Source: Leptolyngbyaceae cyanobacterium
GTDB lineage: Bacteria; Cyanobacteriota; Cyanobacteriia; Phormidesmidales; Phormidesmidaceae
NCBI GenBank assembly: GCA_965263355.1
Contig: CBDHHL010000025.1
Coordinates: forward strand, 64,001 to 128,000
Reading direction: 5' to 3'
DNA: 64,000 nt
Made by a program: the position numbers and the translations under genes. A model generated the notes under the pieces. It was not told the DNA's origin, made no database searches, and saw only the letters and a list, made by a program, of their open reading frames with translations. The stretch's first letter is position 1; every line of letters begins with the position of its first letter. Below are positions 1 through 21,249 of the stretch, piece by piece.

Positions 1-3000
1 GAGGCTGATGCACCATTGTACTGACCTGAACCGTTATGGCTGCTGGCATGAAGATTTGCAAAGGCTTGAGCGCCTTGGGTCACTAACCAGAGATGGGGCA
101 ATTTGCCATCACGACCAATCAAGCTCTGAATTAAATGTAATGTGCTAGCACAGCTTATCTGTGCCGCCGCTTCCAAATCCTGAGTCGTTAGCTCTACCCC
201 AGCTGTAGGCGCTTTCAAACTCCACAGATGAACAATACCCTGACACTCAGGTACTGTTTCCAAAAGCTGCTTAAAATGCTCCACATTAACTGGGTCGACT
301 TGGAAGACCTGCTCACTGATTTGCCCATAGGTTTTGCCAGGGTAGACGAGGATGGTGCGATCACCTTGAGCTTGCAAAGCATTAACCAGTTGCGGTCCAA
401 CACCTTGGATATCCGCAAAAATCAGCCAATGACGGGATTGATAAGGACTGGGCTGACTGGGTTTAGGCTGCCACTCAACCTCATAGAGCCACTGATCAAA
501 CGCGTCAACAGATCTCTCCGATGTAGCAGGCTCTGGCGTAGAACTGAGTGCTCCATTCTGTTCTAGTAATCCACCATTGCGATACCAAGCCGGAGCCTCA
601 ACCCAATGGCGCTGTCGCTGGAATGGATAGGTGGGAATCGGCTGCCGACATCGACTGTAGTCCTGGTCAAATCTTTGCCAGTCAATGGTGACCCCCTGTT
701 GGTAGAGCGTCGCCAAACTGGTGAGCAATTGTGCCCAGTCTGTGCGCTCAGGGTGCAAACTGGGTAGCCACAACCCTGAATGCTCACTTAAACATTGGCG
801 ACCCATGCCTAACAAAACAGGCTTGGGACCTATCTCTACTAGGATTTGTACGTTTTCTTGAGCCAATACATCCATGCTGGTCCTAAATTGAACCGCTTGT
901 CGGATATGTTGACACCAGTAGTCGGGCTGGAGCACGGCATTGGTCACCAGCGTACCTGTGACATTGGACACTAGCGGAATCTGAGGGGGAGCAAAGGTGA
1001 CCTGTTCGACCACCTGAGCAAACTCGGCTAGCATTGGCTCCATCAGCGCTGAGTGAAAAGCATGGGACACCTGAAGCTTTCTATATTTAATGTTGGCCCG
1101 CTCACTCTGAACACAAATCGCATCTAGCTCCCGCTGATCACCAGAAATTACGATGCTCTCCGGACCATTGAACGCTGCTATGGACACATTGGGATAGTTT
1201 TGCAGAGCAGTCTTGGCCTGTTCTGCTGTTGCCAATAGCGACACCATACCGCCCCCAGCGGGTAACGCCTGCACCAATCGACCTCGCAGAGCGATCAGTT
1301 TTAGGCCATCTTCCAAGCTAAAGACACCCGCCACACAAGCAGCGACATATTCCCCCACGCTGTGCCCCATAAGGATATCAGGCGTAATACCCCAGGATTG
1401 CCACAGTTGATATAAGGCATATTCAATGGCAAAAAGCGCAGGCTGACTGTAAACAGTCTGATGCAGGAGAGCGTCTTTATCAGCTTCAGCCGCGTAGAGA
1501 ATATCAATTAGCGAGCGATCCAGGTAGTCTTGAAGAATATCGTCACAGCGATCAAGCGCAGCCCGAAATGTTGGTTGCGTGTCGTAAAGCTGCCGACCCA
1601 TGTCAACATACTGAGACCCCTGGCCTGTAAATAGAAACGCAAGCTTTCCTTGAGCTGAAATAGTTGGAGAGGTCATCCCACCAGTTTCCAACCAGTCCTG
1701 AAGCTGTTGACCCAAATTTGCTTTTGACTCCGTGACGAACGATAGCCGTTCTTGAAAATGCTGGCGACCGACATTGGCGGTAAAACAAATATCCGCAAGC
1801 TTTGATTCGGACTCTGACTCTGACTCTGTATCTAAATACTCCAGATAGCGCTGAGCTAATGACTGAAGGGCAGGGACCGTTTTAGCCGATAAGGTCAAAA
1901 GGTGGTGCGATCGCTCTCCCTCGACCATCCCGTCTGACACCTGACGTCTAACGTCTGACGTTGCGGGCGCTTCCTCCAACACCACATGACAATTGGTACC
2001 CCCCATGCCAAAGGAACTTACTCCGGCGCGACGAGGCGTGCCATTCCGGGTCCAGTCTGTCAGCTCGGTATTGACGTAAAAGGGACTATTGGCAAAATCA
2101 ATATTGGGGTTGGGTTGCTCAAAATGCAGGCTCGGAGGCAATTGCTGATGCTTCAAAGCCAATGCGGTTTTAATCAGCCCTACCACCCCTGCAGACTCAA
2201 TCAAGTGGCCAATATTGGTTTTGACCGAGCCAATGGCACAGAAACCCTTCTCAACCGTGCTTTGGCGAAATGCCTGGGTGAGCGCAGTGATTTCAATCGG
2301 ATCACCCAAGGCCGTCCCTGTGCCGTGGGCTTCTATATAGCTAACGGTGCTGGGGTCCACATCCCCGGCTGCCAGGGCGCTTGTAATTACCTCCGCCTGC
2401 CCCTCAACACTAGGAGCGGTATAACCCACCTTAGCTGCACCATCATTATTTATGGCCGACCCTTTGACCACAGCGTAGATGTGATCCCCATCGGCCATCG
2501 CCTGATCGAGAGCTTTGAGGAGAACCACACCGACGCCATTGCCAAAGACAGTCCCTTTCGCCTGGGCATCAAACGCACGACAATGGCCGTCCGGCGAGCA
2601 AATCATATCGTCCTGGTAGAAATACCCCACTTCCTGAGGAACAGAAATGGACACCCCACCTGCCAGGGCCATATCACACTCACCGCTGAGAATACTCTGA
2701 CAGGCCATATGGACAGAGACCAACGAGGTTGAACAGGCCGTTTGTACATTCACACTGGGGCCGGTCAAATTGAGTTTGTAAGACACCCGTGTGGGCAGAA
2801 AGTCCTTGCTATTGGCCAACCGCACTTGCAGATCAGAGGCCGACCCCAGGAAAGTCCGCTGGGCTGAAAAATTTCTCTGGGGATGCACATTATTAATCAA
2901 ATAAGTATTCATCCCAGACCCGGCATACACACCAATCAACCCGTCATAGGTCTCAGGGTTATAGCCTGCATGTTCAAGCGTTTCCCAAGCAGACTCTAAA

Positions 3001-6000
3001 AAGATCCGCTGCTGCGGGTCCATAATCTCTGCTTCTCGACGGCTATAGCCAAAAAAGGTGGCGTCAAACCGGTCAATATCAGGGAGAACCGCACCGACTT
3101 TCACGTAGTCAGGATGCTGCAGCAGTTCTGGCTCTAACCCCGCCAACTCCTGGGCGGTAAATGGGGTGATTGATTCTACCCCCTGCTGTAGGTTTTGCCA
3201 AAATTCATCCACATTGGCAGCCCCCGGCACACGGCAAGCAATACCAATAATGGCAATGTCAGTGGTGGATTGTTTTCTAGCGGACACTCGCCGCTTAGCG
3301 GACACTCGCCGCTTAGCGGACACTCGCCGCTTAGCGGACACTCGCCGCTTAGCGGACACTTGCCGCCCATTTACTTGAGCACTCGATGACTGAGATTGTG
3401 CCGCTGGGGCCTCAGTAAGATAGTCGGCCAGAGTTTGAATAGTAGGGTATTGAAACAGACTGACAATCGACAACCGAGACGTCAACTGTTCTAGATCCGA
3501 GATATCAGCGCCAGCCCCTAAAACACTCGGATCTGCTCTGAACTGATCTGCCAGCTGTTGATACACCTGGGTCAGCAAAAGGGAATTCCCCCCCAGCTCA
3601 AAAAAGTTGTCAAGGGTTCCTACCTTATCCAGTTGAAGCACTTCTTGCCACACCTGGGCCAGATATTGCTCCATCTCAGACTGGGGCTCCACCATAGCCG
3701 TTGCTAACTCTGGACGAGAACGATCCGGAGCAGGTAATGCCCGACGATTTACCTTACCGTTCTGGGTCAGCGGTAACTCTTCTAAGGTGACAAAGGTAGC
3801 TGGCACCATGTAGTCCGGTAGCTGCTCTTGCAAATACTGACGCACCTGGGGCTCTAGCTTAACCGCCACCTGTCCTTGCAGGGGATTATTGGCATAGGCA
3901 CTCCAAGGCAATGTTGTTTTAGGGGGCTCTTGAAAACAGGGCGGCGAAGATATCGCCACCTGGTCTGGATAAAGTAACACGTCGTAGCATGTCTTATCGG
4001 TGGACCAGGTGATAGCAGCGGCAAAGGACTGTTCTTTGGCAAGACTCCAAATATCTTCTGGCTCGATTCCAGCCTTGTCCACGTTCTCATCAGCTACTCC
4101 GAGACGATCTCGCATCTCGGCCACAGTAGCAGGTTGTTCCGTAGAGCCACCATTCTGACCACTGGCTGATTTACTCTCCATCCATTCCAGTACCTGCATC
4201 TCAGAGGTTAACCGGGCATTTGGAATCCCAGTAATGAGAAAATGCTCTGAGGAATTCTCCTGCAACCGTTGCTGAACTGCTTCCAGGGTTAAGCCATCTG
4301 CTTTCCAATTAAGCTGCTGGGTCTGAACAGGGGCAGTGGGTTCCGGGCCAATGTGGAGAATGGCGTCGTAGCGGAACTTACTCATCTCATTATGGGCACA
4401 GCCTCGTCTCAGTTGAATATCTACCTGAGAAATCGGCAGATGCCGTTGCAATGCAGTGAAAAACTCGGGGGCAATGGCCATTTGCCCTTCCTGCACCATC
4501 TGCTTTCGAATTCGCTGGTGCAGTTGTTGGGTCGATAGTCCAGGAGGAGCCTGATATAACTGAATCGACGCGTGAAACGCTTCTAGCAACGGCAGGCTAC
4601 GTACATCACCCAAGAACAACCGTCCGCCTGGCTTAATCGCCTTGACCACCTCGGTAATTACCTTGACGAGATAATCAATCCCAGGAAAGAGCTGGACAAC
4701 CGAGTTAATAATGACCGTATCTAGGGAATTGGGTGCTAGGTCCGTCACACTGTCAGCCGCCCCCTGACGTAGGGTGACATGGGACCAATCTCCATCCATT
4801 TTTTGCATCTGGGCATTGATATACCCCAGGGCTTTAGGCGCAATATCCACCCCACAGTAGGATTGACAATGGGGTGCCACACCAAACAGCAGCATGCCCG
4901 TGCCACAGCCAATTTCTAAAACGTCTTGGGGCTGCCCCATGAGAATACGTTCGAGCGTCCCATCTAACCACTCTCGCATCTCAGAGGCGGGAATCGGTGC
5001 GCCAGAATAGCTATCATTCCAGCCATTGATATTAAATGTGGGATCTTCCACCTCTAGGGTTTCTTGAGCGTAGGCTAAATCCCATAATTCTTGCCACTGT
5101 GAGACTTGTTCTGCCTGGACATCGGCCTGGGCATTTGTCTCGTCATCAGTGGTCTCTGCGGGGTCCTCTCCTTGATAATTGGCATCTGGCACCATGTAGG
5201 CCACAAGCCGTTTGCCACCCCCCCCATTGGCTTGCTCATCCCTGGCCACAACAACACTTTGGCGTACGCCTGGATGCCGATTCATGGTGGCTTCAATTTC
5301 ACCTAGCTCAATCCGAAAACCTCGGATTTTTACTTGATGGTCAATGCGACCTAAAAATTCAATGTTGCCGTCAGGGAGATACCGCGCTAAGTCACCTGTC
5401 TTATAAATTCGAGGGGAATAGACTATGTCCACGGTTGCCGCATCATTACTCTGTTTGGCAAACGGATTAGGAATAAATCTCTCTTGGGTTAAGTCAGGCC
5501 GATTCCGATAGCCCCGTGCTAAGCCATCTCCACCGATATATAATTCACCAACGTCACCCACCGACACTGGGCGCAGGTCTTCGTCCAAAATGTAAATTAA
5601 GGTATTTGCGATGGGACGACCAATGGAGGCAGGAGTATTGGGGCGAGACGGGTCAAAGGATGAATGCTGGATAGAATGCACCGTGGACCAAATTGTGGCT
5701 TCTGTGGGGCCATACATGTTCCAGACACTGTCCACGCAATCCAGCAATTGCTCCGCTAAATCCGCTGGAAAGGCTTCTCCACCACATAGTACTTTTAACC
5801 CGGACTGTCCCTGCCATCCCGCCGCCAAGAGCATGTACCAGGTTGCTGGAGTTGCCTGCATCATGGTTGCATTGGTTGTCCGCAACAATCGAGCCAAGTC
5901 TGGACCTGATGAAGCGACCTCTCGGCTGGCAATGACGACTTGGGCACCTACCACTAGAGGCAAATGCAGCTCTAGCCCAGCAATGTCAAAACAAACTGTT

Positions 6001-6656
6001 GTTACGGCAACCAGTACGTCCTGATCTGTTATGCCAGGACGCTGGGCCATGGACGTGAGGAAGTTAACAACGGCTCGATGCTCGATTTGAACACCCTTTG
6101 GTTTGCCAGTTGATCCGGAAGTATAGATTGTGTAGGCTAAGTGAGTGGCCGTAACGTTACTCGTGGGATTTTCTTGACTACCCTGAGAAATGTCACCCCA
6201 ATCGGCATCTAAACAAATAACTGTGAGATCGTCTAAGGCGAGTCCTGTGGATAAATGCCCTGTAGCTAGGGACGATTGAGTGAGGAGAATCTTAGCTTGA
6301 GCGTCCTCCAACATATAGGACAGGCGCTCCAACGGATAGGCGGGATCCAAAGGAACGTATGCTCCACCAGCCTTAAGAATTCCTAAAATGGCCACGACCA
6401 TAGTAATCGAACGGTCCACACAGACACCCGTCAATGTATCTGGGCCAACATTTAAACTCTGGAGATAGTGGGCAAGTTGGTTAGCTTTTTGATTAAGTTC
6501 TCTGTAGGTAACCTGTGTTTGATTGAATCTGATTGCGATCGCATCTGGTGTACGCTCTACCTGCTCCTCGAACAGCTGATGCAAGCAACTATCAAACGGA
6601 TATTCTTTAGCCGTTTGATTCCACTCAATCGGTACAATATTGCGATCCTTTACCAT
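1..6656 (-). CDS. Hybrid NRPS-PKS, 3'-partial (A[Gly]-N-MT-T-KS-AT-start of KR), >2200 aa
   Basis: Manual translation of segments from ATG at 6656; frame checked as consistent at A, KS, AT and the window edge. A cores [44 protein letters not shown]; embedded [11 protein letters not shown] (~4900); [10 protein letters not shown] (~3600); [11 protein letters not shown] and [32 protein letters not shown] structural part [22 protein letters not shown]. Confidence 0.95.
3278..3366. repeat. 18-bp tandem repeat (TAGCGGACACTCGCCGCT) x~4.8, encoding (VSAKRR)n in the T-KS linker
   Basis: Four perfect units plus a partial unit, in frame with the NRPS-PKS. Confidence 0.95.
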
Positions 6657-7280
6657 AAACACAGGCAACATCTCCTACAGTTACTACAGATTGTTGAATA
6701 CTTAGCGATTGAAATTGCCAATACACCTTTTTGGATTTATCATTCCTAAAACTACTGTTTAGGGCGCTGAATGATGACCATAGGCAGCTAGTTGACAACT
6801 TTGAAACTTACAAATGCCTGACCAAAGCTGTGAATGAGGGCTCAGGAATACAGCAATTCTTAGTCTTACAATTTTTTAGAGTTGCCGTTTTCTCCAAATC
6901 CATATTTTCAATAGCTATTGTACTGACTTAAAAGTATTCAGGTTGGTTTTTGTGATATTTCTAAGGTACTTAATGACGATAATTAAGGTGAATTTTAATC
7001 ATATACCTTGCTAACCTCCTAAAGATTTGTTCAACCGGTGTCCCAATTTCAATGGACACACTTTTAATAAGACATTTCAAAAGTTCGTTAATCAAGTGAC
7101 AATTTTTGCACCATAGCCTAGTCATAAATTTGAATCGCAACTGCCACTGTAAATGGAGTGAGTATCATGGGATGCAATCAAACTATTACCAAAACTATTC
7201 AAAAGAGCCTTTTGCAAAGCAGACAAATTAATATCTGACTATGCTCCCATATCGTCAATTTCCCAAGCTATAACAAAGGA

Positions 7281-7652
7281 CTAAGTTCCATTATAGAAAA
7301 AAGCAATATCATCATATTGTTCTACTAGAAATAAGTTGATGACATTTTGCAAAGATAAATTTGAGCTGGAAAACCCTTGCAATCGCTTAAGAACGACTGC
7401 CAGCATCTTCTGCATTATTAAATTAATGTCCGTAATCAGAGCAATTTTTTGTTTGTTAGTTAAACCTTCTATAACTACATCTGTCACGTATTCTATCTCA
7501 AGAACTTTTTGTGCGGACAGATTATCTAAAACACTATTGCTCATGATACCATGCTGATAGCAGCTAGATGGCATTATTGTGTCATAATGATGAGATAAAT
7601 CCGTGTAATTACTGATCTTTGCTGCTCTACCCTTAAGTATTTCCATTTTCAC
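7281..7652 (-). pseudogene. Degenerate class I SAM-dependent methyltransferase relic
   Basis: Aligns by eye to the 15810 ORF (NYTDLSHHYD vs KYAGIASYYD), but motif I is decayed (VLEIEYVTD vs ILELGVGTG); short and AT-rich. Confidence 0.5.
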
Positions 7653-8147
7653 TTTTCCTTTGGGTTACTTTGCTCTCCACTTGTATTAAAGAGCCATTAC
7701 AAAGGACTTTTTAAAGTGTTCTCTTAGGCAACTTAGCATATTACTAGCACCGTATAAAGCCTTATTTTGATGTCATTGTTACTTAATAGCTAGGCAAAGC
7801 AGCCAAACATTTCATCGCTTACCCTAGAAAAAATAGTCTTTTAGCTAGACAAGATTCAGTACAGTCAACAGATAGTCGATGTCGATAGCTTGAAGAGCAT
7901 TTTTTCAAAAGCAACAAAAAGTAGATCCCCAGTGAAAACCGACCGTCGATTACAGGCTTTACAAAACTTTACTTCCTGGCTTGAAAAGCACTACAAGTTG
8001 TTGAATTTAGACAATTAGAGCGTATTACAATACGCTGATTTTTTATCGTTTATTGCTTAGTCAGCTTTTCAGATCGCCAAAAACCAGATATTACTAAATG
8101 TAACGGAGAGATGACGTGTTCATTAATACGTTCGTCGCAAGTCCTGG

Positions 8148-8169
8148 ATTTTACCAGGATTTTACATTT
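8148..8169 (+). promoter_or_regulatory. Conserved motif ATTTTACCAGGATTTTACATTT upstream of metK
   Basis: Identical 22-mer at 19153-19174 and a 20/22 match at 15716-15737; ATTTTAC direct repeat with 11-bp period. Confidence 0.6.
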
Positions 8170-8244
8170 TTTTGCTTAACTCTTGGTCACTGGACGTTAG
8201 TAGTCAGTGGCCTGTTCTACGGTGCCTAGTCAAGTGATTGCATA

Positions 8245-9399
8245 ATGAGTATATACAATACGTTTACGTCAGAGTCAGTATCAGCAGGTCATCCTGACAA
8301 AATGGCTGACCAAATTTCGGATGCCATTTTGGATGCCATGCTCAAGGATGATCCCCACTCGCGGGTGGCGGTGGAAACCCTAGTCAAAACTGGCATGGCG
8401 ATTGTTGCTGGAGAGGTTCGCACCAACACCTATGTGGATTTGGAAGATATTGTTCGCGACGTCATTTTAGGTATTGGCTACGACAGTTCCGATGTGGGGT
8501 TTGATGGAGCCTCCTGTGCCATTGTCAACGCTATTGGTAAACAGTCCAGTGACATTGCCATGGGGGTGGACGAGGCTGAAAACAAAGATTTGGGTGCTGG
8601 TGACCAAGGCCTTATGTTTGGCTATGCCACCAACGAAACTGATGTGCTGATGCCCGCTCCGATTTACTATGCCCACCGCCTAGTGGAGCGCCAGGCAGAG
8701 TTGCGTAAAACCGGAAAACTCTCTTGGCTACGACCAGACGCTAAAAGTCAGGTGACCTTGAGATACGAAAACGGCAAACCTGTTGCTATTGATGCCATTG
8801 TGCTATCCACTCAACATGATCCCGATGTCACCCTGGGTGACATTCGTGAAGCTGTCATGGAGGAGATCATTAAGCCTGTGCTTCCCCATGACTGGTTGCA
8901 TGTGGGTACTCAGTACCACATCAACCCCACCGGGCAATTTATCATTGGTGGACCGGTGGGAGACTGTGGGTTAACTGGACGCAAGATTATCGTCGATACC
9001 TACGGTGGTATGGCACGTCACGGTGGTGGTGCATTCTCAGGCAAGGACCCCTCTAAAGTGGATCGATCAGCAGCCTATGCAGGTCGCTATGTGGCTAAAA
9101 ACATTGTTGCTGCGGGACTGGCTGATTTGTGCGAAATTCAAGTGTCCTATGCCATTGGTGTAGCTGAGCCTACATCTATCTCCGTCAATACTTTTGGCAC
9201 TGGTAAGCTTGAAGATGACAAAATTGCCACGTTGGTGCGAGAACACTTTGACCTGCGTCCCCAAGGTCTGATTGATATGCTGAATTTACGTCGCCCTATT
9301 TATCAGCAAACGGCGGCCTATGGTCACTTTGGTCGGGAACTGTCTGATTTTACTTGGGAACAAACTGACAAGGCCGAGCCGTTAAAAGCAGCACTGTAA
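8245..9399 (+). CDS. metK: S-adenosylmethionine synthetase
   Basis: [49 protein letters not shown]. Confidence 0.98.
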
Positions 9400-9429
9400 T
9401 TTTTGAGAAAACCTAAGAAAACGAAACCT

Positions 9430-10812
9430 ATGAGCACTTCAACACTCACCCGCGACTATAAAGTTGCCGATATTAGTCTGGCTAGCTGGGGACGCAAGGA
9501 AATTGCCATTGCAGAAGGTGAAATGCCGGCTCTCATGGCCATTCGCAAAAAATATAGCGATAGCAAGCCTCTGGCTGGAGCCAAGATTATCGGCTGTATC
9601 CACATGACCATTCAAACCGCTGTCCTAATCGAGACCCTAATCGAGCTGGGTGCAGAGGTGCGCTGGTCCTCCTGCAATATCTTTTCTACCCAAGACCATG
9701 CTGCTGCTGCGATCGCAGAAGTCGGTGTGCCCGTCTTTGCCTGGAAGGGAGAAACCGAAGACGAATATATGTGGTGCATTGAACAAACCTGCCGAGCTAC
9801 CGATGGCAAGCTGTGGGATGCCAACATGATTTTGGATGATGGCGGTGACCTAACAGGCTACATTCACGAAACCTATCCCGATATGCTCACCCATATCCAT
9901 GGTGTTACCGAAGAGACTACCACCGGAGTACATCGCCTGTACGAAATGCTAGAAAAGGGTGAACTCAAAATTCCTGCCATCAACGTCAATGACTCGGTCA
10001 CTAAAGCTAAAAATGACAATAAATATGGCTGTCGTCATAGCTTGAATGATGCCATTAAGCGCGGTACCGATCACCTGATGGCAGGTAAAAAGGCCTTAGT
10101 GATTGGCTATGGTGATGTTGGTAAAGGCTCAGTGGCCTCTCTTCGCCAGGAAGGCATGATTGTTAAGGTGGCTGAGGTAGATCCCATCTGTGCTATGCAA
10201 GCCTGTATGGATGGCTATGAGGTGGTATCTCCCTATGTCGATGGTGTAAATAATGGCGTTGCTAGTCTTAACAAGACACTTTTGGCCAACATTGATTTGT
10301 TGGTTACTGCTACGGGAAATGTGAATGTCTGTGATGCCCCTATGCTGACAGCCTTAAAGCCTGGAGCAGTCGTTTGTAATATCGGTCATTTTGACAATGA
10401 GATTGATACGGCTTACATGCGTCAGACCTGGCGCTGGGAAGAGGTCAAACCGCAGGTACATCAGGTTTACCGCAGCGATGATCCCCAAGACTTTCTGATT
10501 TTGTTAGCAGAAGGTCGTTTAGTAAATTTAGGGAATGCTACTGGCCATCCGTCTCGAATTATGGACGGGTCATTTGCCAATCAGGTGTTGGCTCAGATGT
10601 TCTTATTTGAGCGGAAATTTGCCGATAAGTCTGATCTGGAAAAGGCTGCAGAAATTACTGTGGACGTGTTGCCCAAGCAATTGGATGAGGAAGTTGCTCG
10701 CTATATGGTTGAAGGGTTTGGTGGTGTGATTACTCAGCTAACATCCACCCAGGCTGACTATATCAATGTGCCAATGTCTGGTCCTTTCAAGCAAGATAGC
10801 TACAAGTACTAA
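9430..10812 (+). CDS. ahcY: S-adenosylhomocysteine hydrolase
   Basis: [52 protein letters not shown] at 9430 preferred over TTG at 9403. Confidence 0.97.
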
Positions 10813-10916
10813 CCGAAGTCCTCAGGACGGCTTTATAAAGGTCTATCTTTTGTCAAGTCGTCCTATTTTTCTCCTAGCATTAAAGTCTCTACAGTTCTTC
10901 AAAAAAGGCTATACCA

Positions 10917-11804
10917 ATGACGTCACTCCCCATTAGTTTTGAATTCTTTCCACCGAAAACGGCAGAGGGAGGGGCTCAGCTAATGGAACAGTATGCTATT
11001 TTAGCGGCCTGTCAGCCTGAGTTTTTTTCGATTACCTATGGAGCGGGGGGGACGACGCGCGATCGCACCAAACAACTTGTCCTAGATATTAATGCCAAAG
11101 AGATTCCCGCCGTTCCACACCTATCGTGCATTGGTGATACTCGGGCATCCTTGCGAACAATATTGGATACTTATAAGGGCGCAGGTATTCAAAATATTGT
11201 CACCTTGAGAGGCGATCTGCCTAACGATATGGATGATGTGGCCAATGAGTTTCACTACGCTGATGAGTTGGTCACATTTATTTGTCAAGAGTACAAAGAT
11301 ACATTTAATTTAATTGTGGCGGCCTACCCTGAGGTTCATCCTGAAGCTAAAAATGCTCAGCAGGACTTAGTCAACTTTAAACGCAAGGTTGACGCTGGAG
11401 CCGTCGCTGCCATTACTCAATATTTCTACAATCCAGACGCCTACGAAGACTTTGTGAATCGCTGTCATCAGGCAGGAATCACTATCCCCATTTATCCAGG
11501 GATTATGCCGATCACCAATTATGAACGGTTAGCTCGATTTAGCCGCATGTGTGGGGCACAAATTCCCCAATGGATTGAAAATCGCCTGCTTGATTATCAA
11601 GATGATCCGTCAGGGTTACAGGCCTTTGGGTTAGATGTGGTTACCCAGCTATGTGAAAAGTTAATAGCGCTGGGTGCACCTGGATTTCATTTTTATACGT
11701 TGAATCAGGCAACGCCTACCCTAAAAATTCTAAAAAATCTAGGACCTACAGTGGCCTATGAATCTACCTTAAACCTAGCGTCAGAAAAACTTTTAGCTCA
11801 TTAA
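10917..11804 (+). CDS. metF: 5,10-methylenetetrahydrofolate reductase
   Basis: SFEFFPPK, TYGAGG, LRGD, AAYPEVHP, ITQYF, HFYTLN. Confidence 0.97.
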   Translation: MTSLPISFEFFPPKTAEGGAQLMEQYAILAACQPEFFSITYGAGGTTRDRTKQLVLDINAKEIPAVPHLSCIGDTRASLRTILDTYKGAGIQNIVTLRGDLPNDMDDVANEFHYADELVTFICQEYKDTFNLIVAAYPEVHPEAKNAQQDLVNFKRKVDAGAVAAITQYFYNPDAYEDFVNRCHQAGITIPIYPGIMPITNYERLARFSRMCGAQIPQWIENRLLDYQDDPSGLQAFGLDVVTQLCEKLIALGAPGFHFYTLNQATPTLKILKNLGPTVAYESTLNLASEKLLAH

Positions 11805-11903
11805 AAAGTAATTTTAGAAACCAGAAAAATAAACTTCTAAGGTTGTCTTCCATGCTGTTGGCTAAACGCAGCCATAGACAACAAAAGTTTTTTACCAGGT
11901 CTT

Positions 11904-13454
11904 CTATCCTCGAATCACCGTAATCTGTCGTCCATTCGCTGTTGTAGCAGCGTCTGTTTTGGTACGTTCCGCCATCGGGGGTAACCCCTCCCGTCGATCA
12001 AAAATCATCAACCAACCAGTCTCTAACCCCAATCCTGCCAAATACTTATCCAACTGAACCAGGCCAGCCTTCAGCGGGTCCGGTCGTCCCGGTCGCCATA
12101 CCTTTAGCTCAATGCCCAGGGTGACTGCACCATAGCGCAAACACAGATCCATCCGATCTGTACCAATGGCATATTCTCTCTCTAACGTCCCGCCCCCGTT
12201 CACCACCCGGTGCAAAAAGGCCATCATCACTAAATGGGGCGCAATTTCATGGTATGGCGCGCTCTTCAACAACGGTTGCCCATGCTGTCGCCAAAATGAG
12301 AGAAATGCTTCTAACAGTTTATCCACATCCAACTGACCATCAGCCTGCAACCAGGTAGGGCTAATCTGCGGCAAACTATCCTGGGGACCGCTCGCCAGCA
12401 TCCGGGGCAACACCTCCTGATAAATTCGGTTGGCCACCACAATGCCCCCTTGAGACGAGCGACGCAGCAATCCCAAATCCACTAAATAGTCGCGATCATC
12501 TATAGGAACTTTGTTTAACTCCTGCCCTGCCATTAGGGGTTCAATCACCGCTCGAATCCGAGATTCTTCTAAGCGCTTGCTTAAGCTATCCAGATGAGTA
12601 TCTCGACGTTGAATCAACACTTCCTTCGCTTGATGAATATGCTCCAGTGTAATTGTCGTCTGTTCATCGGGGACTATCACTTCCACCACCTGACGCGCTA
12701 GGGCATTCACCAGCCAAGGTTGACCATGGGTTAGCTCAAATGCCAAAGCAAGGGCCTCTGGGGTAAACTGTTGGCCTGTTTCAGCAGTATGTTGACGATA
12801 CAGCTGTGCGACGTCCTCTGCACTGAAGTTACCTAGGGTAAATGACTCTACTTTTACATTAAACGGACTGGCCGTTTGCAAGCGCGTACTGCCGCCAGAC
12901 GTTACTTTATAATCCCGCACATCTCGCATACCAATTAAGGCGAGGGAGTGGGGAAAATTTTCAGGTCGTTGAGGATAGCCATCGCGCAGCTGTCGCAGCA
13001 CTGCAATTAGGGCATCATCCATCAGGGAATCGATTTCGTCAATTAGGACCACCAGCGGACGGGCACAGCTCCTCGCCCAGACCTGTAGGGCCGTACCGAT
13101 GCGGCGTCCATCTGCCACGTCAGGCCAGGGTGGGGGCTGTAATTCATCTGATAAATAACTCTGAGCCGCCCCGCGCCAGGCCTCTAAGATCGCTCGTTCG
13201 GCTTTGCCAGGATCATGACTAAAGGGTTGACCCACTTCAGCAGATACCATGATGGCACAATAGTCCCCGCTATCGGTTAGCTGTTGAGCCAGGGCTAACA
13301 TGGCCGTGGTTTTACCGGTTTGACGGGGTGCATGGACCACAAAATAGCTTTCCTGAGCAATCAGGCGATCTAAGGGGGGCAGCCGTTCGATTGCCGGTAG
13401 CATATAGTTTTTGTCTGGGCGGCAGGGTCCAGCGGTGTTAAACCATTTGGGCAT
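11904..13454 (-). CDS. AAA-like ATPase with C-terminal PD-(D/E)XK nuclease-like domain (copy 1)
   Basis: Walker A APRQTGKTT, Walker B LIDEID, C-terminal EREY..GRMD-like DRMDL..IELK. Confidence 0.85.
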   Translation of the reverse strand: MPKWFNTAGPCRPDKNYMLPAIERLPPLDRLIAQESYFVVHAPRQTGKTTAMLALAQQLTDSGDYCAIMVSAEVGQPFSHDPGKAERAILEAWRGAAQSYLSDELQPPPWPDVADGRRIGTALQVWARSCARPLVVLIDEIDSLMDDALIAVLRQLRDGYPQRPENFPHSLALIGMRDVRDYKVTSGGSTRLQTASPFNVKVESFTLGNFSAEDVAQLYRQHTAETGQQFTPEALALAFELTHGQPWLVNALARQVVEVIVPDEQTTITLEHIHQAKEVLIQRRDTHLDSLSKRLEESRIRAVIEPLMAGQELNKVPIDDRDYLVDLGLLRRSSQGGIVVANRIYQEVLPRMLASGPQDSLPQISPTWLQADGQLDVDKLLEAFLSFWRQHGQPLLKSAPYHEIAPHLVMMAFLHRVVNGGGTLEREYAIGTDRMDLCLRYGAVTLGIELKVWRPGRPDPLKAGLVQLDKYLAGLGLETGWLMIFDRREGLPPMAERTKTDAATTANGRQITVIRG

Positions 13455-13512
13455 GGGGCTTACGAACGAATGGCACAGTGCAGTATAGCAACTATATCAA
13501 TGATTACTTAGG

Positions 13513-13983
13513 GATTCCCGCCGTTCCACACCTATCGTGCATTGGTGATACTCGGGCATCCTTGCGAACAATATTGGATACTTATAAGGGCGCAGGTATT
13601 CAAAATATTGTCACCTTGAGAGGCGATCTGCCTAACGATATGGATGATGTGGCTAATGAGTTTCACTACGCCGATGAGTTGGTCACGTTTATTTGTCATA
13701 TGAACGGCTAGCTCGATTTAGCCGCATGTGTGGGGCACAAATTCCCCAATGGATTGAAAATCGCCTGCTTGATTATCAAGATGATCCGTCAGGGTTACAG
13801 GCCTTTGGGTTAGATGTGGTTACCCAGCTATGTGAAAAGTTAATAGCGCTGAGTGCACCTGGATTTCATTTTTATACGTTGAATCAGGCAACGCCTACCC
13901 TAAAAATTCTAAAAAATCTGGGGTCTACGGCATCCCATAAACCTGACTCAAACATAGCGTCAGAAAAGCTTTTAGCTTATTAA
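13513..13983 (+). pseudogene. metF: metF duplicate fragment with a 232-bp internal deletion
   Basis: 13513-13698 matches 11102-11287 and 13699-13983 matches 11520-11804 (near-identical, last ~60 nt diverged). Confidence 0.95.
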
Positions 13984-14096
13984 GAAGTATTTTAAGAACC
14001 AGGAAAAATAACGCTCAACTTCAGTCTGCGTTGAGAATAGGCATACAGTATCTAAAATTTGACCAAACGGAGCCTGGTACTTCATCACGTATAGTT

Positions 14097-15578
14097 TCAA
14101 TTGAGCGTTTTTAATTTCTGTACACCCAGTAGGCAACTTAACCCATAGACTAGAAAGCCCGCGAGCATTCCTGGTAAAACCTCATAAATTGCTGCTGATA
14201 AGTTAAACCAGCTCCACAATGCCGCTGCAACAATCCCCATAGCCATCATGCTGACCCCGACTAGCGGCTGAACGGGCAATTTCCAGACCCGCAGCATTAA
14301 TATAGGCCCTAAGCCAGACCCCAGGGCCGACCAGGCAAAAAAGCCCAGGGCAATCAAATTTTTATCACTGGCTAGTGCGATCGCAAGAACAATTGCTGTG
14401 ACAATTAGCGTTCCAACTTTCACTAACCGGTAAGATTTGCCCATCGCAGGGAACAGATCTTGAGTCAGGGCTGCCGAGCAAGATAGAATCTGCGAATCCG
14501 CCGTTGAGATTACCGCTGAGAATATTCCTGCCAAAATAACTCCGATCAGCAGCGCAGGCAGTAAATCAATGGCCAGCTGTGGAAATGCTAGAGTTGGGTC
14601 ACCATTAGCCTTAATGAGATCAGGAAGTAAAACTCGAGCCGCTAGACCAACAACTAGTGCAGACGCAGAAAAGAATACATAGGAGATAGCATAGATATTA
14701 CGAACCAGTCCGATATGGTCAGGAGCATCGACAACCATTGCCCTCACCATAATATGCGGTTGACCAACGACACCAACCCCAGCAACAATCCAGCTGAGCA
14801 AAAATAATCCAAATCCATACTTAAGGTCTTGTGGAATAACATCAATTAAGATGGGGTCAATAGCGCCTAACTGTTGCCACATGCCGCTAAAACCACCACA
14901 GGTATGTAAGGCAACGCCCGTTAAGAGAAACATAGCTACTACCATCACAATTGACTGTACGGCATCGGTCCAAATAGAAGCACGGATGCCACCAGCAAAG
15001 CAGTAAGAAACAACAATGACTGTGCCGATAAGAACACCTAAATTATCGTTAAACCCAAAAATAGCGTGTAATGCTTTGCTTCCTGCTAACAGTTGTGTAG
15101 CAGCGTAGGTGCCCAAAAACGCAATTGTAATTACGGCAGCAAGCATTGCCACAGGGTTCTGCTCTTTACTATTTTGGGATAGAAAACTACCAATAGTTGT
15201 AGAGTCAGTTTCTTCTGAGACAATCCGTAAGGGTTATAGAAAGCTACCAATAGTTGTAGAGTCAGTTTCTTCTGAGACAATCCGTAAGGGTTTGTGAATA
15301 AAAAACCAAGTTATATAGTCTCCAAAAAACCAACCAAACAGCAACCAAAGACTTGAAATACCAAACTGATATGTGTACCCAATAACACCGATAAACATGG
15401 CACCGCTATGGGCAGTTGAGAACGTGGAAAGAGCCGTCATCCATGGGCTGACATCGCGACTGGCCAGTAAGTAATCTACTGTCGTATTCTGTCTATTAAC
15501 TGAAGAATACAGACCAACGCCAATAAATAATAAAAGAAAAATAGCAAAGCTTAGGGCAATGGCAAGTTGGTTTGGCAT
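14097..15578 (-). pseudogene. Sodium:solute symporter (SSS/PutP-like) interrupted by a premature TAA
   Basis: DYLLASR, GGIRASIWTDAVQ, GQPHIMVRAM, ISTADSQ; the two ORFs are in the same frame, split by a stop at 15234-15236. Confidence 0.9.
15179..15292. repeat. 57-bp tandem duplication (one mismatch) inside the symporter gene
   Basis: Units start at 15179 and 15236. Confidence 0.95.
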
Positions 15579-15715
15579 GACAAAACTTGTATTTAAAGAG
15601 CAAAAACTCGAACTGAACTAGTAAAATGAATATGATTTTTAACGCAAATTCGAATGATAGAATGCACTATCATCACAATTAGCGCAAGCAAAAAAAATAT
15701 TACTTAGAAATGTAA

Positions 15716-15737
15716 ATTTTACCAGGATTCTACTTTT
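15716..15737 (+). promoter_or_regulatory. Variant of the shared motif (ATTTTACCAGGATTCTACTTTT) between the divergent symporter and methyltransferase genes
   Basis: 20/22 match to 8148-8169; similar distance (~75 nt) to the downstream ATG. Confidence 0.55.
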
Positions 15738-15809
15738 TGTTGGTTAAGTGCCTAGTAATAGATAGGCAAAAGTGATGCAAAGATTTGAGTTTTCCTTACT
15801 ACTTAACAA

Positions 15810-16091
15810 ATGACTGACAACAAATACGCGGGTATTGCCAGCTATTACGATTTGTGGGTGACGTCTGGTTACTATGATTACCAAAGCTTGGCTCAGGAAA
15901 TTCATTCATATATTGGCAATGGTCACAATATTCTTGAACTGGGAGTCGGCACAGGACTATTGGTTGAAAAGTTCCTAGAAATTGACACCAGTTGCACATT
16001 CACAGGAGTCGATTTTGCTCCGTTAAAAAAAATGAGCGAACCACAAACTAATTTACAGGTTTTACCGAGATTTTACTTTTTTTTGCTCTAA
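15810..16091 (+). pseudogene. Truncated class I SAM-dependent methyltransferase
   Basis: Motif I ILELGVGTG and TGVDFAP, after which similarity to the fold ends; only 93 aa. Confidence 0.75.
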
Positions 16092-16180
16092 TGATTGATG
16101 TTAAAGATCAATCAAGTTGCTAATAACTGCGAAAACTAGGTAACGATTAGGAGGTTTTAGATCGTCGCAAATTATTAGAC

Positions 16181-17128
16181 ATGAATGTGATTGAGGAAGG
16201 CCAAGAACCAGTTCATCGAGTGGGTGCCACTAACGGTCTTGGTCAACAGCTTCCTTTCACACGACTGTTTTTGCCAATTGCCCGTATCGGTATACTTGTG
16301 CCGAAAAAAGCTGTTGATAAGACCCATTGCGCCATCCAAATTTTATTGCCCGGTACTGGTACTACATTTTCTGTAGCTGAGACCCTCTGTGATGTTGCTG
16401 GCACTTTCCATGGGCGCAAAAGCAAAAATCGGGGTGGCGGACGCAAGAGTAACCAAAGTTTAATCACCCAGGCTTTGCCAGATGGCCAAACATTTCGTGT
16501 CGCGTCTTTCCCCACCGATCTTCCCCTAAATGGCATGGGATCAGACGCTCCATTCGAATTTGCCAGTGAAGCAGGTTTAATGGCTGTATTACGCCATGTA
16601 CATTTGGTATTATCCCATCTCTATCCTGAACGCCCTGTGTTTATAGCAGGACGTAGCCAGGGGGGCATCGCTGCTATCTTATATGCCCAACATTATGATG
16701 ACTTGACTGGAGCGATCGCAGTCAATCCACCTCACCCCGACCCCGAGTTATTCAAGTTTACGGTTCAATATTTGGAAGATAAGGCCAAAGTGCTGGCCGA
16801 CTTGCTCCATGCCCCAGGAGTAACCCTACACAATCAGAGCTGGGAAGCATACAAAACGTTTACGCCGTCCTTTGACTATCCATCTAGGCCGTCACTTTCG
16901 TCTATTTTAACCCTAGTAAGTTTGGGCGATCCGTTTAACTTATTCCCCGAGTATGAATACGCCCAGAAGGAATTTGCGGATAAAGATGAAAAAAACCATT
17001 TGCACATCCTTGATGCGGGTCACAACCTTTGGGACAGGAAAGCAGAAGAGATGTATCAAAAAGTGATTAATTTACAAGCTGATTTCATGCTGGAGCAGAT
17101 CAGGGGACAAAAAGTATCTGATGATTAA
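16181..17128 (+). CDS. Alpha/beta-fold hydrolase
   Basis: Nucleophile elbow AGRSQGG, candidate Asp (GDPF) and His (AGHN). Confidence 0.75.
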   Translation: MNVIEEGQEPVHRVGATNGLGQQLPFTRLFLPIARIGILVPKKAVDKTHCAIQILLPGTGTTFSVAETLCDVAGTFHGRKSKNRGGGRKSNQSLITQALPDGQTFRVASFPTDLPLNGMGSDAPFEFASEAGLMAVLRHVHLVLSHLYPERPVFIAGRSQGGIAAILYAQHYDDLTGAIAVNPPHPDPELFKFTVQYLEDKAKVLADLLHAPGVTLHNQSWEAYKTFTPSFDYPSRPSLSSILTLVSLGDPFNLFPEYEYAQKEFADKDEKNHLHILDAGHNLWDRKAEEMYQKVINLQADFMLEQIRGQKVSDD

Positions 17129-17183
17129 TACTGTTGTCAGTGTTGTTTAAATACAGTTGTAATCCAAATTTCATAACAGAATA

Positions 17184-18731
17184 TCATCCTCGAATCACCA
17201 TAATTTGCCGTCCATTGGCTGTTTCGGTAATTTCTGTTGTGGTACGTTCTGCCAGCGGTGACAATCTTTCCCGTCGATCAAAAATCATCAACCAACCAGA
17301 CGACAATCCTAACCCCGCCAAATACTTATCCAACTGAACCAGGCCAGCCTTCAGCGGGTCCGGTCGTCCCGGTCGCCATACCTTTAGCTCAATACCCAGG
17401 GTGACTGCACCATAGCGCAAACACAGATCCATCCGATCTGTACCAATGGCATATTCTCTCTCTAGAGTCCCCTCACCATTGACCACCCTATGCAAAAAGG
17501 CCATCATCACCAAATGGGGCGCAATCTCATGGTACGGTGCACTCTTTAACAATGGTTGTCCATGCTGTCGCCAAAATGAAAGAAAGGCCGCCAACAATTT
17601 ATCCACATCCAACTGACCATCAGCCTGCAACCAGGTAGGGCTAATCTGCGGCAAACTATCCTGGGGACCGCTCGCCAGCATCCGGGGCAACACCTCCTGA
17701 TAAATTCGGTTGGCCACCACAATGCCCCCTTGAGACGAGCGACGCAGCAATCCCAAATCCACTAAATAGTCGCGATCATCTATAGGAACTTTGTTTAACT
17801 CCTGCCCTGCCATTAGGGGTTCAATCACCGCTCGAATCCGAGATTCTTCTAAGCGCTTGCTTAAGCTATCGAGATGAGTATCTCGTCGTTGAATCAACAC
17901 TTCCTTCGCTTGATGAATATGTTCCAGCGTGATGGTCGTCCGTTCATCGGGGACTATCACTTCCACCACCTGACGCGCCAGGGCATTCACCAGCCAAGGT
18001 TGACCATGGGTTAGCTCAAATGCCAAAGCAAGGGCCTCTGGAGTAAACTGTTGGCCTGTTTCAGCAGTATGTTGACGATACAGCTGTGCGACGTCCTCTG
18101 CACTGAAGTTACCCAAGGTAAATGACTCTACTTTTACATTAAACGGACTGGCCGTTTGCAAGCGCGTACTGCCGCCAGACGTTACTTTATAATCCCGCAC
18201 ATCGCGCATACCAATTAAGGCGAGGGAATGGGGGAAATTCCTGGGTCGTCGGGGATAGCCATCGCGTAATTGCCGCAATATCGAAATCAAGGCATCATCG
18301 GTCAGGGAATCGATTTCGTCAATAAAGAGGACTAGTGGCTTTGGACATGCCTGACACCAGGCTTGCAAAGCCGCGCCAATTTTGCTGCCTTCTACTTTAG
18401 GCCAGGGAGGCGGTTGCAGTTCTGGCGGTAACCATGCCCTGGCTGCCTGCCGCCAGGATTCTAAAATATACACCTCGGCCTTGTCTGGATTATGGCTAAA
18501 GGGTTGCCCCACTTCAGCCGAAACCATAATGGCTGCATAGTCACCTTGGGCGGTTAGCCGCTGCGCCAGGGCTAACATGGTGGTGGTTTTACCGGTCTGA
18601 CGGGGCGCATGGATAACGAAATAGCTTTCTTGGGCAATTAAACGATCTAAGGGGGGCAGCCGTTCGATTGCCGGTAGCATATAGTTTTTGTCTGGGCGGC
18701 AGGGTCCAGCGGTGTTAAACCATTTGGGCAT
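17184..18731 (-). CDS. AAA-like ATPase with PD-(D/E)XK domain (copy 2)
   Basis: Paralog of 11904-13454, with a near-identical central region. Confidence 0.85.
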   Translation of the reverse strand: MPKWFNTAGPCRPDKNYMLPAIERLPPLDRLIAQESYFVIHAPRQTGKTTTMLALAQRLTAQGDYAAIMVSAEVGQPFSHNPDKAEVYILESWRQAARAWLPPELQPPPWPKVEGSKIGAALQAWCQACPKPLVLFIDEIDSLTDDALISILRQLRDGYPRRPRNFPHSLALIGMRDVRDYKVTSGGSTRLQTASPFNVKVESFTLGNFSAEDVAQLYRQHTAETGQQFTPEALALAFELTHGQPWLVNALARQVVEVIVPDERTTITLEHIHQAKEVLIQRRDTHLDSLSKRLEESRIRAVIEPLMAGQELNKVPIDDRDYLVDLGLLRRSSQGGIVVANRIYQEVLPRMLASGPQDSLPQISPTWLQADGQLDVDKLLAAFLSFWRQHGQPLLKSAPYHEIAPHLVMMAFLHRVVNGEGTLEREYAIGTDRMDLCLRYGAVTLGIELKVWRPGRPDPLKAGLVQLDKYLAGLGLSSGWLMIFDRRERLSPLAERTTTEITETANGRQIMVIRG

Positions 18732-18778
18732 GGGGCTTACGAACGAATGACACGGTGCAGTGTAGCAACTATATCAAT

Positions 18779-18896
18779 GATTACTTAGGAGCGGGGGAAC
18801 GACTCGCGATCGCACCCGACAACTTACCCTAAACATCAATGCCAAAAGGATTCCTACCGTTATCCCCCTAGTCGGCATTAACGATACTTATACATC
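18779..18896 (+). pseudogene. Decayed metF fragment
   Basis: GGAGCGGGGGAACGACTCGCGATCGCACC..AATGCCAAA resembles metF ~11030-11150. Confidence 0.7.
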
Positions 18897-18984
18897 GCTA
18901 GTTAGCAGAGGTTTGAGCCTTACCACCGAGTCAGGGCAAGATTATGAGTAAAACGTATATTGAGCTGTTAAAGACTATTAATAA

Positions 18985-19128
18985 TACGACTTGGAAGGTT
19001 ACGAGTAGAGAAAAATAAAAGCCTTTATTTTCAAGGGTTTTGAAAGTCCGAAATTATCAGATTTTTGCTACTGCAGAACGTAATTGCGTCGTTTCAAATT
19101 TTCTTTCATGATAACCTTCCAAGTCGTG
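18985..19128. mobile_element. 144-bp MITE
   Basis: 16-bp perfect inverted repeats ACGACTTGGAAGGTTA (18986-19001 and 19112-19127), flanked by the 6-bp direct repeat TAATAA. Confidence 0.8.
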
Positions 19129-19152
19129 TAATAATCTGAGGATAGGCCACAC

Positions 19153-19174
19153 ATTTTACCAGGATTTTACATTT
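19153..19174 (+). promoter_or_regulatory. Shared motif ATTTTACCAGGATTTTACATTT upstream of mscS
   Basis: Identical to 8148-8169. Confidence 0.6.
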
Positions 19175-19359
19175 GTCTGCTTCAATGACTACCACCTGGG
19201 GGAAGTTAACCCAGTTTCCTCATTGAATCCAGTGAGGATCTGCCTGTTCTAAGTAATTTAAGCAGCGTTTTTGTCTCTCATTTGTGGCTGAGATAGTCAC
19301 CGGAGAGTACAGTTTTCTCGTAATTCGATTTAGCCACCATCTAAGAGACCTTTGGAGCA

Positions 19360-21249
19360 ATGCGTAAGTTCGTTATTCTAATTAAATTTCAAGCACTTGC
19401 GATCACAGGATGCCTTGCTTTGTTTGCGATCGCAGGCCCCCCTGCCCTATCCCAGGAAGGCGAAGCAGACGCAGACGCAGCAGTTGAAACTACTGTTGTG
19501 GAAGAAGTTGACCTAGAGGAAGAACCAACTGAACCCGCTTATGTAGCCGTCAGTGCTGATAATCCCGAAATTGCCACCCTGCAGCTGGAGCTACTGCTTA
19601 ATCCCCTAACAACTGACGAGCTTACCGTAGAGGCAGATGCATGGCTGCTGTTACTGCGACAGCGAGTGCAGTCCATTAGTGAATTAGAACTTTCGATTGA
19701 ACAGGAAAATGACATTATCAAGGTCAGACAAGAGGCTCTGGAACAGCTGGAAAAGGCTAAGGCTTCTAATGCACCCAAGTCTGAACTGGATGCCATTGAA
19801 CGTGAATTAAACAAGTTGAAAGCCCAGGCAACGGCTGCCCAGGCCGATCCGCGCTTTAAAGAGATTTTTACTGAAGCTAAGACAAATTATGCGATTGTTA
19901 CCGGGGACGATTTAGTTGCTCAGGCACGTAGTCAACTATCCTCAATTGAAGCGGATGAAGCAAGAGATAAGGCTACTTTCTTAATCACAGACCTGGAAAC
20001 AGCTCTTGGTAGTTACGAATTAGCCGAGTCTAAGCTAAACGAGCCTTTCTTTAGCGATCTCAGGTATGAAAAAGCTAGTGAGCTAGTTGAAGATCGAAAA
20101 GACAGAGTGACCAGGGCCTATAAAACTTTAGAAAACTCCCCCTTATTTACTCCCAGCTTAGCTAATGAGAATGTCCAAGAACAAATACGTGATCAGCTAA
20201 TTGCTCAAGCCACCGTTCTCGAAACTAGTCGCTCAAATCTGGTTACCAGAGTCCAACTGGTGCTCGATGAACTTGAGAAAAAAGGCGGAGATATTGAAGC
20301 CTATGACCGCTACATCAAGGCAATTAGCGGTCTAGATTTCGATGTCACTGATGCCCAAGGCGTCAGAATCAGGTTTATGACCTGGTTACAATCAGAAGAT
20401 GGGGGGGTTAGGCTAGGTCTTGGCTTATTAAAATTTGGCGGTATCCTTCTCGCCGCCTTTATTGTTGCTCCACGGGTTGGAAAGATATCAGATAAGCTGT
20501 TGAGTAAGGTTCAGGGGATATCTACACTCTTCCGTGAGTTTGCTGTCACGATGATCAAACGCAGCGTACTGGTCCTTGGTGGTTTTTTGGCGCTAGCTGC
20601 TCTAGGGGTAAACCTAGGCCCAATTTTAGCCGTTGTTGGTGGTGCCAGTTTTGTTTTAGCCTTTGCATTGCAGAGCAATCTGGGTAACTTTGCCAGTGGT
20701 TTAATGCTGTTGATTAGTAAGCCCTTTGACGTCGGTGATGAAGTTAAAGTGGCGGGCTACTGGGCCTATGTGGACTCTATTTCTTTGGCCAATACCAAAC
20801 TGAAAGACTTCGCTGGCAATATTATTACCCTCCCCAACAACACCGTATGGGGCGGTGATATCATCAACCATACTCACTCTGATATTCGCAAAGTGGGTCT
20901 TGGCATAAATGTCAAATTTACCCAGGACGTAGATCAACTGCAAGATATTTGGATGGCCATTACAAGTGCTCATCCCAAGGTCTTAAAGGATCCAGCACCT
21001 GGTATTTTTCCCTACAGTTCAACCTATGATTACAAAATGTGGGTTGGCTTAAATGCCTGGTCAAAAACAACTGACTTTTGGGGAGTTTATGTTGATTTGC
21101 TTAAAGCCTTGCAACGTAAATTAGACGAGAACAATATTGATCTGGCTGCTCCTGTACAGGAAATTAAGGTCGATGGTTCATCTGACGAGGCTGCAATAGC
21201 TGAGCTACCTATCCTAACTGAGGCATCTTCGGAAGTCATCATGAGCTAG
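19360..21249 (+). CDS. MscS-family mechanosensitive channel with a large N-terminal periplasmic coiled domain
   Basis: Signal-like N-terminus; LAFALQSNLGNFASG..KPFDVGDEV..LPN channel motif. Confidence 0.92.
   Translation: MRKFVILIKFQALAITGCLALFAIAGPPALSQEGEADADAAVETTVVEEVDLEEEPTEPAYVAVSADNPEIATLQLELLLNPLTTDELTVEADAWLLLLRQRVQSISELELSIEQENDIIKVRQEALEQLEKAKASNAPKSELDAIERELNKLKAQATAAQADPRFKEIFTEAKTNYAIVTGDDLVAQARSQLSSIEADEARDKATFLITDLETALGSYELAESKLNEPFFSDLRYEKASELVEDRKDRVTRAYKTLENSPLFTPSLANENVQEQIRDQLIAQATVLETSRSNLVTRVQLVLDELEKKGGDIEAYDRYIKAISGLDFDVTDAQGVRIRFMTWLQSEDGGVRLGLGLLKFGGILLAAFIVAPRVGKISDKLLSKVQGISTLFREFAVTMIKRSVLVLGGFLALAALGVNLGPILAVVGGASFVLAFALQSNLGNFASGLMLLISKPFDVGDEVKVAGYWAYVDSISLANTKLKDFAGNIITLPNNTVWGGDIINHTHSDIRKVGLGINVKFTQDVDQLQDIWMAITSAHPKVLKDPAPGIFPYSSTYDYKMWVGLNAWSKTTDFWGVYVDLLKALQRKLDENNIDLAAPVQEIKVDGSSDEAAIAELPILTEASSEVIMS

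Follow-up and report, generated by a model that had tools for sequence, protein, structure and literature searches.

The window analysed here is a stretch of 64,000 nucleotides from a Leptolyngbyaceae cyanobacterium (GenBank assembly GCA_965263355.1, contig CBDHHL010000025.1, positions 64,001 to 128,000). At its left edge lies a gene for a megasynthase that is a hybrid of non-ribosomal peptide synthetase and polyketide synthase (NRPS-PKS), divergent from an intact metK-ahcY-metF set and followed by genes for a symporter and an MscS-family channel. The megasynthase open reading frame (ORF; 3..6671, minus strand) encodes 2223 amino acids and is open at the window edge. Pfam gives the order AMP-binding, methyltransferase, AMP-binding_C, PP-binding, ketosynthase (KS), acyltransferase (AT) and the N-terminal part of a ketoreductase (KR). 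The core of the adenylation (A) domain (5262..6572, minus strand, as are all domains given here) occupies the starter position and retains Asp235 in an FDI motif; tblastn detected no condensation (C) domain or remnant upstream of it. Its specificity code, DILQLGMIWK, was obtained from an alignment to LgrA and from multiple and pairwise alignments, and is identical at all but one residue to the Bat2 code for glycine (DILQLGLIWK) listed in Table 1 of PMC4831472. Between motifs A8 and A9 lies an N-methyltransferase (N-MT; 3897..5114) with the SAM motif LEIGCGTG. Its closest match is the N-MT of PDB 5wmm (E 1e-51), which we take to be TioS; an AlphaFold model of the domain (pLDDT 66) contributed nothing further. 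A thiolation (T) domain (3420..3668, motif GGNSL), a KS with an intact Cys-His-His triad (2112..3263) and an AT (693..1637) with GHSVG and HAFH motifs follow, HAFH being the standard signature of malonyl-type ATs. The structural subdomain of a KR (3..506) comes immediately after the AT, with no dehydratase (DH) between them. The linker between T and KS contains an in-frame 18-bp tandem repeat encoding VSAKRR units (3278..3367), where unitigs of sequencing runs X1 and X3 break (3307/3331); run X1 also has a contig of 9335 nt, of which 3307 nt fall on the window. Pfam, the alignments and tblastn thus confirm what the original prediction had said of this protein, namely a starter A domain without a C domain, a glycine-type code, an N-MT embedded in the A domain, and T-KS-AT with malonyl specificity. 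Its KR claim stands for the structural half, which is encoded here; the catalytic part, lying beyond the window edge with the acyl carrier protein (ACP) and thioesterase (TE), is inferred from homologues.

Alignment over A-MT-T-KS at 49% identity or more yielded 45 homologues among 327 stored proteins. The full glycine-type code is present in 40 of them and the HHxxxDG motif of an active C domain in none of the 45, many of which keep an inactive C-lobe remnant at the N-terminus that the window copy lacks. Every complete homologue with a KR and no DH, the type found in the window, ends in KR-ACP-TE (23/23), including the nearest (P0052, 67% identity over 2235 amino acids), and the window protein very probably does the same. 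One relative, P0090, ends at the ACP without a TE. Other homologues have DH, enoylreductase (ER) and KR (n = 10 complete), no KR (n = 4) or an aminotransferase (n = 1). Family members differ both in amino acid (Gly, Ser or Pro) and in reductive loop. We examined 13 glycine-type genomic loci (L001–L012 and L016), with flanks spanning about 7.5 kb on the upstream side and 3 kb on the downstream side, and found no second NRPS or PKS gene in any of them. The proposal of a single pass through the enzyme, with no further modules, therefore holds among the homologues, while for the window copy the end is deduced by comparison.

In a methyltransferase tree, from which eight rows were removed (six duplicates, two fragments), the window domain falls within a clade of these enzymes (ultrafast bootstrap (UFBoot) 100). 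Ser-type and other PKS forms make up the sister group, and one Pro-type member lies inside the clade. Named carriers include Moorena, Symploca, Crocosphaera, Xenococcus, Lyngbya, Rivularia, Ca. Thiomargarita and Ca. Kentrum, a mostly marine set of cyanobacteria and sulfur bacteria. A search of plasmids gave no family member, the best match listed being at most 46%, and among the matches listed from metagenomes none exceeded 55%; short, near-identical pieces of the window were found in a macroalgal and a microbial-mat metagenome.

The original prediction had assigned the megasynthase its own SAM-recycling operon. The three genes are metK (8245..9399), ahcY (9403..10812) and metF (10917..11804, encoding MTHFR and scoring above the TIGR00676 cut-off), all on the plus strand. 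Many genomes from the order of genome G269 have the window type of metK as their sole, housekeeping copy, usually ahead of ahcY and without metF, which by itself argues against a dedicated operon. Genome G453, however, has two sets: a metK-ahcY-metF island on contig C51, and housekeeping metK-ahcY and metF on other contigs. The island genes are 95% (metK), 95% (ahcY) and 82% (metF) identical to those of the window, the housekeeping ahcY of G453 being 89% identical, and in the metK tree the window copy joins the G453 island copy (UFBoot 98). We therefore consider the trio an additional set that accompanies an N-methylating megasynthase in two or more genomes, which supports the predicted operon; the reading of the trio as plain housekeeping genes was rejected on the same evidence. 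The G453 island also encodes an MscS channel (65% identical to that of the window), a response regulator (74%), a second MscS, two PhyH oxygenases, a METTL27-like methyltransferase, a BBOX/TmpA-like oxygenase and a megasynthase of the order A(Ser)-MT-T-KS-AT-DH-cMT-ER-KR-ACP-TE, where cMT is a C-methyltransferase. Seven genomes with a close ahcY type had no megasynthase nearby, and the family methyltransferase was absent from all five genomes searched for it. Contig depth is higher over ahcY in runs X1 and X3, a difference not taken as copy number. As a separate observation, about half of the genomes in the order of G269 use a metK of the window type, and the window ahcY is closer to that of Acinetobacter (74%) than to those of four cyanobacteria tested (42–43%); the metK and ahcY of this order are likely the result of an old gene replacement.

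The window contains four copies of a motif that had been missed earlier, ATTTTACCAGGATTTTAC..TGCTT, against 0.08 expected by chance. The copies, all on the plus strand, lie upstream of metK (8148..8177), between the symporter start and a methyltransferase fragment, upstream of the latter (15716..15745), upstream of a hydrolase gene (16059..16088) and upstream of mscS (19153..19182). Seven more are found on the G453 island contig, some of them preceding the megasynthase gene, metK and the two MscS genes. A position weight matrix (PWM) trained on these 11 sites found no copy in 22 other loci, and a pattern search found the motif in only one of 172 genomes, G453. On the megasynthase side of the window there is a weak fifth copy (7909..7938, minus strand; 19 bits, versus 34–48 for the training sites). 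The motif repeats directly at an 11-bp period and is followed by a –10-like element, a layout like that of a response-regulator box. An Rfam scan of the window gave no hits, the motif included, and a scan for sigma-70 promoters and terminators returned matches at chance level. An additional copy lies at the end of another G453 contig (L226, G453:C42:40449), where the G453 island may continue.

The MscS-family channel (19360..21249, plus strand) is large, intact and of a rare subtype found at eight places in seven of 172 genomes. At four of these a starter A(N-MT) NRPS follows it immediately; three others lack such a gene and one is cut by a transposase. Together with its presence in the G453 island, this bears out the predicted linkage of MscS with the megasynthase. 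Behind the channel lies a response regulator (21495..22613, plus strand), a position kept in the G453 island. Two genomes, G446 (L262) and G444 (L263), carry the same MscS subtype beside another cassette common to both, with no NRPS. The nearby symporter of the original prediction is present as a PutP-like SSS gene (14097..15578, minus strand), but its reading frame is broken by a premature TAA stop that arises from a 57-bp tandem duplication (15179–15292). Unitigs of runs X1 and X3, the former possibly the source run, end at the points expected for a genuine repeat, which places the duplication in the reads.

These features suggest the following route. The starter A domain would load glycine onto the T domain, and the embedded N-MT would methylate the tethered amine, probably repeatedly, since a starter module without a C domain leaves the amine free. 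KS and AT would add one malonyl unit, KR would reduce the 3-oxo group and TE would release an N-methylated 4-amino-3-hydroxybutyrate, which in its trimethylated form is carnitine; a METTL27-like methyltransferase might modify it further. The acquired island would supply and recycle SAM through its second metK-ahcY-metF set and release the solute through MscS. From the domain content, the carnitine skeleton is probable. Trimethylation of the glycine nitrogen is a tentative proposal, as is the role of the product as an osmolyte (compatible solute), the simplest fit to the extra SAM cycle, the MscS channel and the betaine-type transporters. In relatives, an OpuAC ABC transporter, an SSS gene and an MscS gene adjoin L004, and a ProV-like ATPase adjoins L006 and L222; BBOX/TmpA-like oxygenases beside some relatives likewise fit a betaine-type product. 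The extra SAM set, the channel and the common upstream motif point to a high-flux, co-regulated solute pathway. On balance we lean slightly towards a thiotemplate enzyme working in one pass, whose product is a small carnitine-type amino acid, quaternary or nearly so, and whose gene lies on an acquired island with its own SAM supply.

In assembly logic the locus comes closest to BurA, the gonyol-forming NRPS-PKS of the malleicyprol pathway, gonyol being a zwitterion, a known osmolyte and a pathway intermediate (PMC7496086). Both enzymes have a starter A-T and one KS-AT-KR malonyl module, which in BurA leads, and here is predicted to lead, to a 3-hydroxy zwitterionic acid, the catalytic KR of the window enzyme being predicted from its relatives. 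BurA, however, loads ready-made dimethylsulfoniopropionate with an A domain that lacks Asp235, whereas the window A domain keeps this residue and a glycine-type code, and the embedded N-MT would form the onium group while the substrate is carrier-bound; separate methyltransferases occur in related loci. In gene arrangement the closest system is the glycine betaine cluster of Halorhodospira, GMT-DMT-MAT-SAHase-MTHFR (PMC7824335), which likewise unites these three SAM-cycle genes with a step that methylates glycine. There, free methyltransferases act on free glycine, whereas here tethered glycine is predicted to be methylated and extended by two carbons; no intact free methyltransferase was present among the ORFs scanned at 1–22 kb of the window. 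Because the locus fails a defining feature of each, it belongs to neither family. TioS (PDB 5wmm) shares an N-MT of the same family between A8 and A9, in an elongating peptide module, whereas the window domain sits in a starter module that feeds a PKS module. The eukaryotic carnitine pathway, which runs via trimethyllysine and BBOX (PMC8085414, PMC4736438), yields the skeleton that is predicted for the product here, and BBOX-like oxygenases stand beside some relatives, but its precursors and chemistry differ and the window contains no TMLD or BBOX gene. Fungal ATRR loads glycine betaine and reduces it, with no methyltransferase or PKS module (PMC9321204, PMC7496086). It shares NRPS-like handling of a betaine thioester, and sister A(Gly)-MT-T-R proteins (R, reductase) resemble it in logic; the window megasynthase is not A-T-R-R and has a methyltransferase and a PKS module. 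The reported labelling of carnitine from betaine (PMC9321204) is not counted as support, because the window A domain should load glycine rather than betaine.

Several findings weigh against this reading. TioS-type methyltransferases usually add one methyl group. Megasynthases are slow, the BurA A domain having a kcat of 2.4/min (PMC7496086). The SAM trio is absent from the visible flanks of all 13 glycine-type loci, so the full system is lineage-specific rather than family-wide, and the only sister island, that of G453, uses serine instead of glycine. MscS genes occur in three of the 13 loci and belong to distant subtypes; an SSS gene adjoins one of 13, and the symporter of the window is interrupted. 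The window island is also partly decayed, with methyltransferase fragments and a broken metF duplicate. Conserved synteny, which the original prediction had asked to check, holds for the trio, MscS and regulator beside the Ser-type megasynthase of G453, but not for the trio or the symporter among glycine-type relatives. A METTL27-like gene follows the megasynthase in 11 of 13 glycine-type loci and is also present in Ser-type loci, and a short-chain dehydrogenase/reductase (SDR) with a sulfotransferase-like gene is found in six of 13, which suggests that the released acid is not always the final product. BBOX/TmpA-like oxygenases adjoin some relatives, among them KR-only glycine forms in which the hydroxyl would already have been made (L003, L007 and L011; the pairs in L007 and L011 are TmpA/TmpB-like), with scores of 222–310 bits in related loci, below the BBOX cut-off of 415. 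In favour of the reading, the oxygenase of G453, also below this cut-off, has aromatic residues at four of what we take to be the five aromatic-cage positions of human BBOX, which hints at a substrate with a trimethylammonium group; fewer of these residues are kept in the L011 homologue. The cage concept is that of PMC4736438. A conventional osmolyte route, marked by ggpS, is present in two of five carriers tested (G453 and G004).

Much of this would also fit a product that serves as a low-abundance cationic signal or deterrent. The assembly chemistry would be the same, and the METTL27-like, SDR, sulfotransferase-like and oxygenase genes would yield a methyl ester or a sulfated or oxidised betaine, with MscS and the SAM genes serving export and supply rather than osmotic balance. 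The frequency of these tailoring genes, the ggpS genes, the variation in substrate and reductive loop that is typical of specialised metabolites, and the rarity of the family, for which a family-level score was reached by the centre genome alone among 401 of the phylum, are in keeping with such a role. A duplicated SAM cycle with its own motif, however, implies a high methyl flux, and these genes repeatedly have MscS and betaine ABC transporters as neighbours; we regard the signal or deterrent as unlikely, though the most serious of the alternatives. Alternatively, the glycine nitrogen might be methylated only once, N-methyl-4-amino-3-hydroxybutyryl then being one unit of a larger compound that genes to the left of the window or elsewhere complete. 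The C-terminus of the megasynthase and its left flank do lie outside the window, many homologues carry a C-domain remnant and P0090 has no TE. Yet the remnant is without HHxxxDG in every case, a TE closes both the nearest homologue and every complete KR-only form, and the 13 loci hold no partner NRPS or PKS, which makes this improbable. Comparably remote is a decaying island in which the pathway no longer works as a unit and the SAM genes and channel are retained passengers. Decay is visible in the broken symporter, two methyltransferase remnants, a broken metF duplicate, a doubled AAA gene, expansion of the linker repeat and the weak motif on the megasynthase side; set against it, the 2223 visible codons and all catalytic motifs of the megasynthase are intact, as are metK, ahcY, metF, the hydrolase and MscS.

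If the carnitine-type product is confirmed, the locus would represent an undescribed bacterial way of making carnitine. A 2021 statement holds that de novo carnitine synthesis has not been seen in prokaryotes (PMC8085414), and marine carnitine and butyrobetaine metabolism has been called unexplored (PMC9321204). Our literature search, with subscription journals and supplements largely outside it and a precedent thus possible, found no NRPS-PKS route to carnitine and no account of this family. The actinomycete route mentioned in the original prediction was likewise not found in that search, nor was a Nonomuraea precedent, and the passages of PMC4247773 that were consulted do not mention the cluster. 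More broadly, and with considerable doubt, we suggest that these proteins of marine cyanobacteria and large sulfur bacteria are an undescribed family that makes betaines by assembly line. Permethylation on the carrier, with a single PKS module, would give carnitine (KR), gamma-butyrobetaine (DH-ER-KR), dehydrocarnitine (no KR), aminocarnitine (aminotransferase) and Ser or Pro analogues, with prokaryotic carnitine made de novo from glycine, malonyl-CoA and SAM in one polypeptide as a compatible solute. Were this true, such a route, with one gene and glycine as its start, would identify bacteria as sources of these marine solutes and open the way to carnitine fermentation with one enzyme, and megasynthases would serve physiology and not specialised metabolism alone. 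The question can already be tested on the natural series of amino-acid and reductive-loop swaps, some of whose members are in named strains of Moorena and Xenococcus.

Several variants of the family and its neighbours were observed in passing. P0114 is a glycine-type member with an aminotransferase end in place of KR-ACP-TE, and its product would have an aminocarnitine skeleton. KR-only members divide by KR fingerprint into non-LDD (P0052, P0085 and P0091) and xDD (P0094, P0105 and P0272) forms, a split that predicts opposite configurations at C3. By the usual KR rule, the absence of LDD from the nearest homologues would correspond to L-carnitine. Megasynthases with Ser, Pro or other codes and full reductive loops are found at L194 (G453), L216 (G454), L023 and L214; one has an extra C-methyltransferase, and BBOX/TmpA-like oxygenases adjoin three of the four. 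The stand-alone A-MT-T-R proteins of the sister group (L013, L014, L017, L018, L020, L021 and L022; P0158–P0269) come in many cases from Nostoc, Scytonema and Microcoleus; 44 of 53 have a DILQ glycine-type code with W at position 9, and L014 and L020 have the same downstream SDR. They could make betaine aldehyde or choline on the carrier, a bacterial parallel to ATRR. At L217/L233 (G436), L258/L259 (G454) and L222/L232 (G561), an MscS gene is followed by A(Pro)-MT-T-C-A(Gly)-T-TE with racemase-like, oxygenase, METTL27-like or ProVWX-type genes, a candidate pathway for a proline-betaine-glycine dipeptide solute.

The remaining island genes of the window include an alpha/beta hydrolase (16181..17128, plus strand), copies of which, 81–82% identical, end the A(Pro)-MT-T-C-A(Gly)-T-TE clusters of G436 and G454. 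A truncated class I methyltransferase fragment (15810..16091, plus strand) has an extra T at 15928 in run X3. The small ORF at 7281..7652 (minus strand) belongs to no family and has a faint, weak likeness to this fragment (E 0.048), making it a possible methyltransferase remnant. Two copies of an AAA-family ATPase gene (11904..13454 and 17184..18731, both minus strand) flank the symporter and hydrolase region, the first being probably an unrelated insertion, and a broken partial duplicate of metF lies at 13510..13998 (plus strand). Both ATPase copies abut metF fragments (11904–13998 and 17184–18888), signs of repeated local recombination. Further along the window, positions 28583–32737 and 46087–61901 encode a large DUF4347/Calx-beta/GSDH/lectin protein, a TPS-CHAT-ShlB secretion set and a C39-peptidase ABC exporter pair, all ordinary for cyanobacteria.

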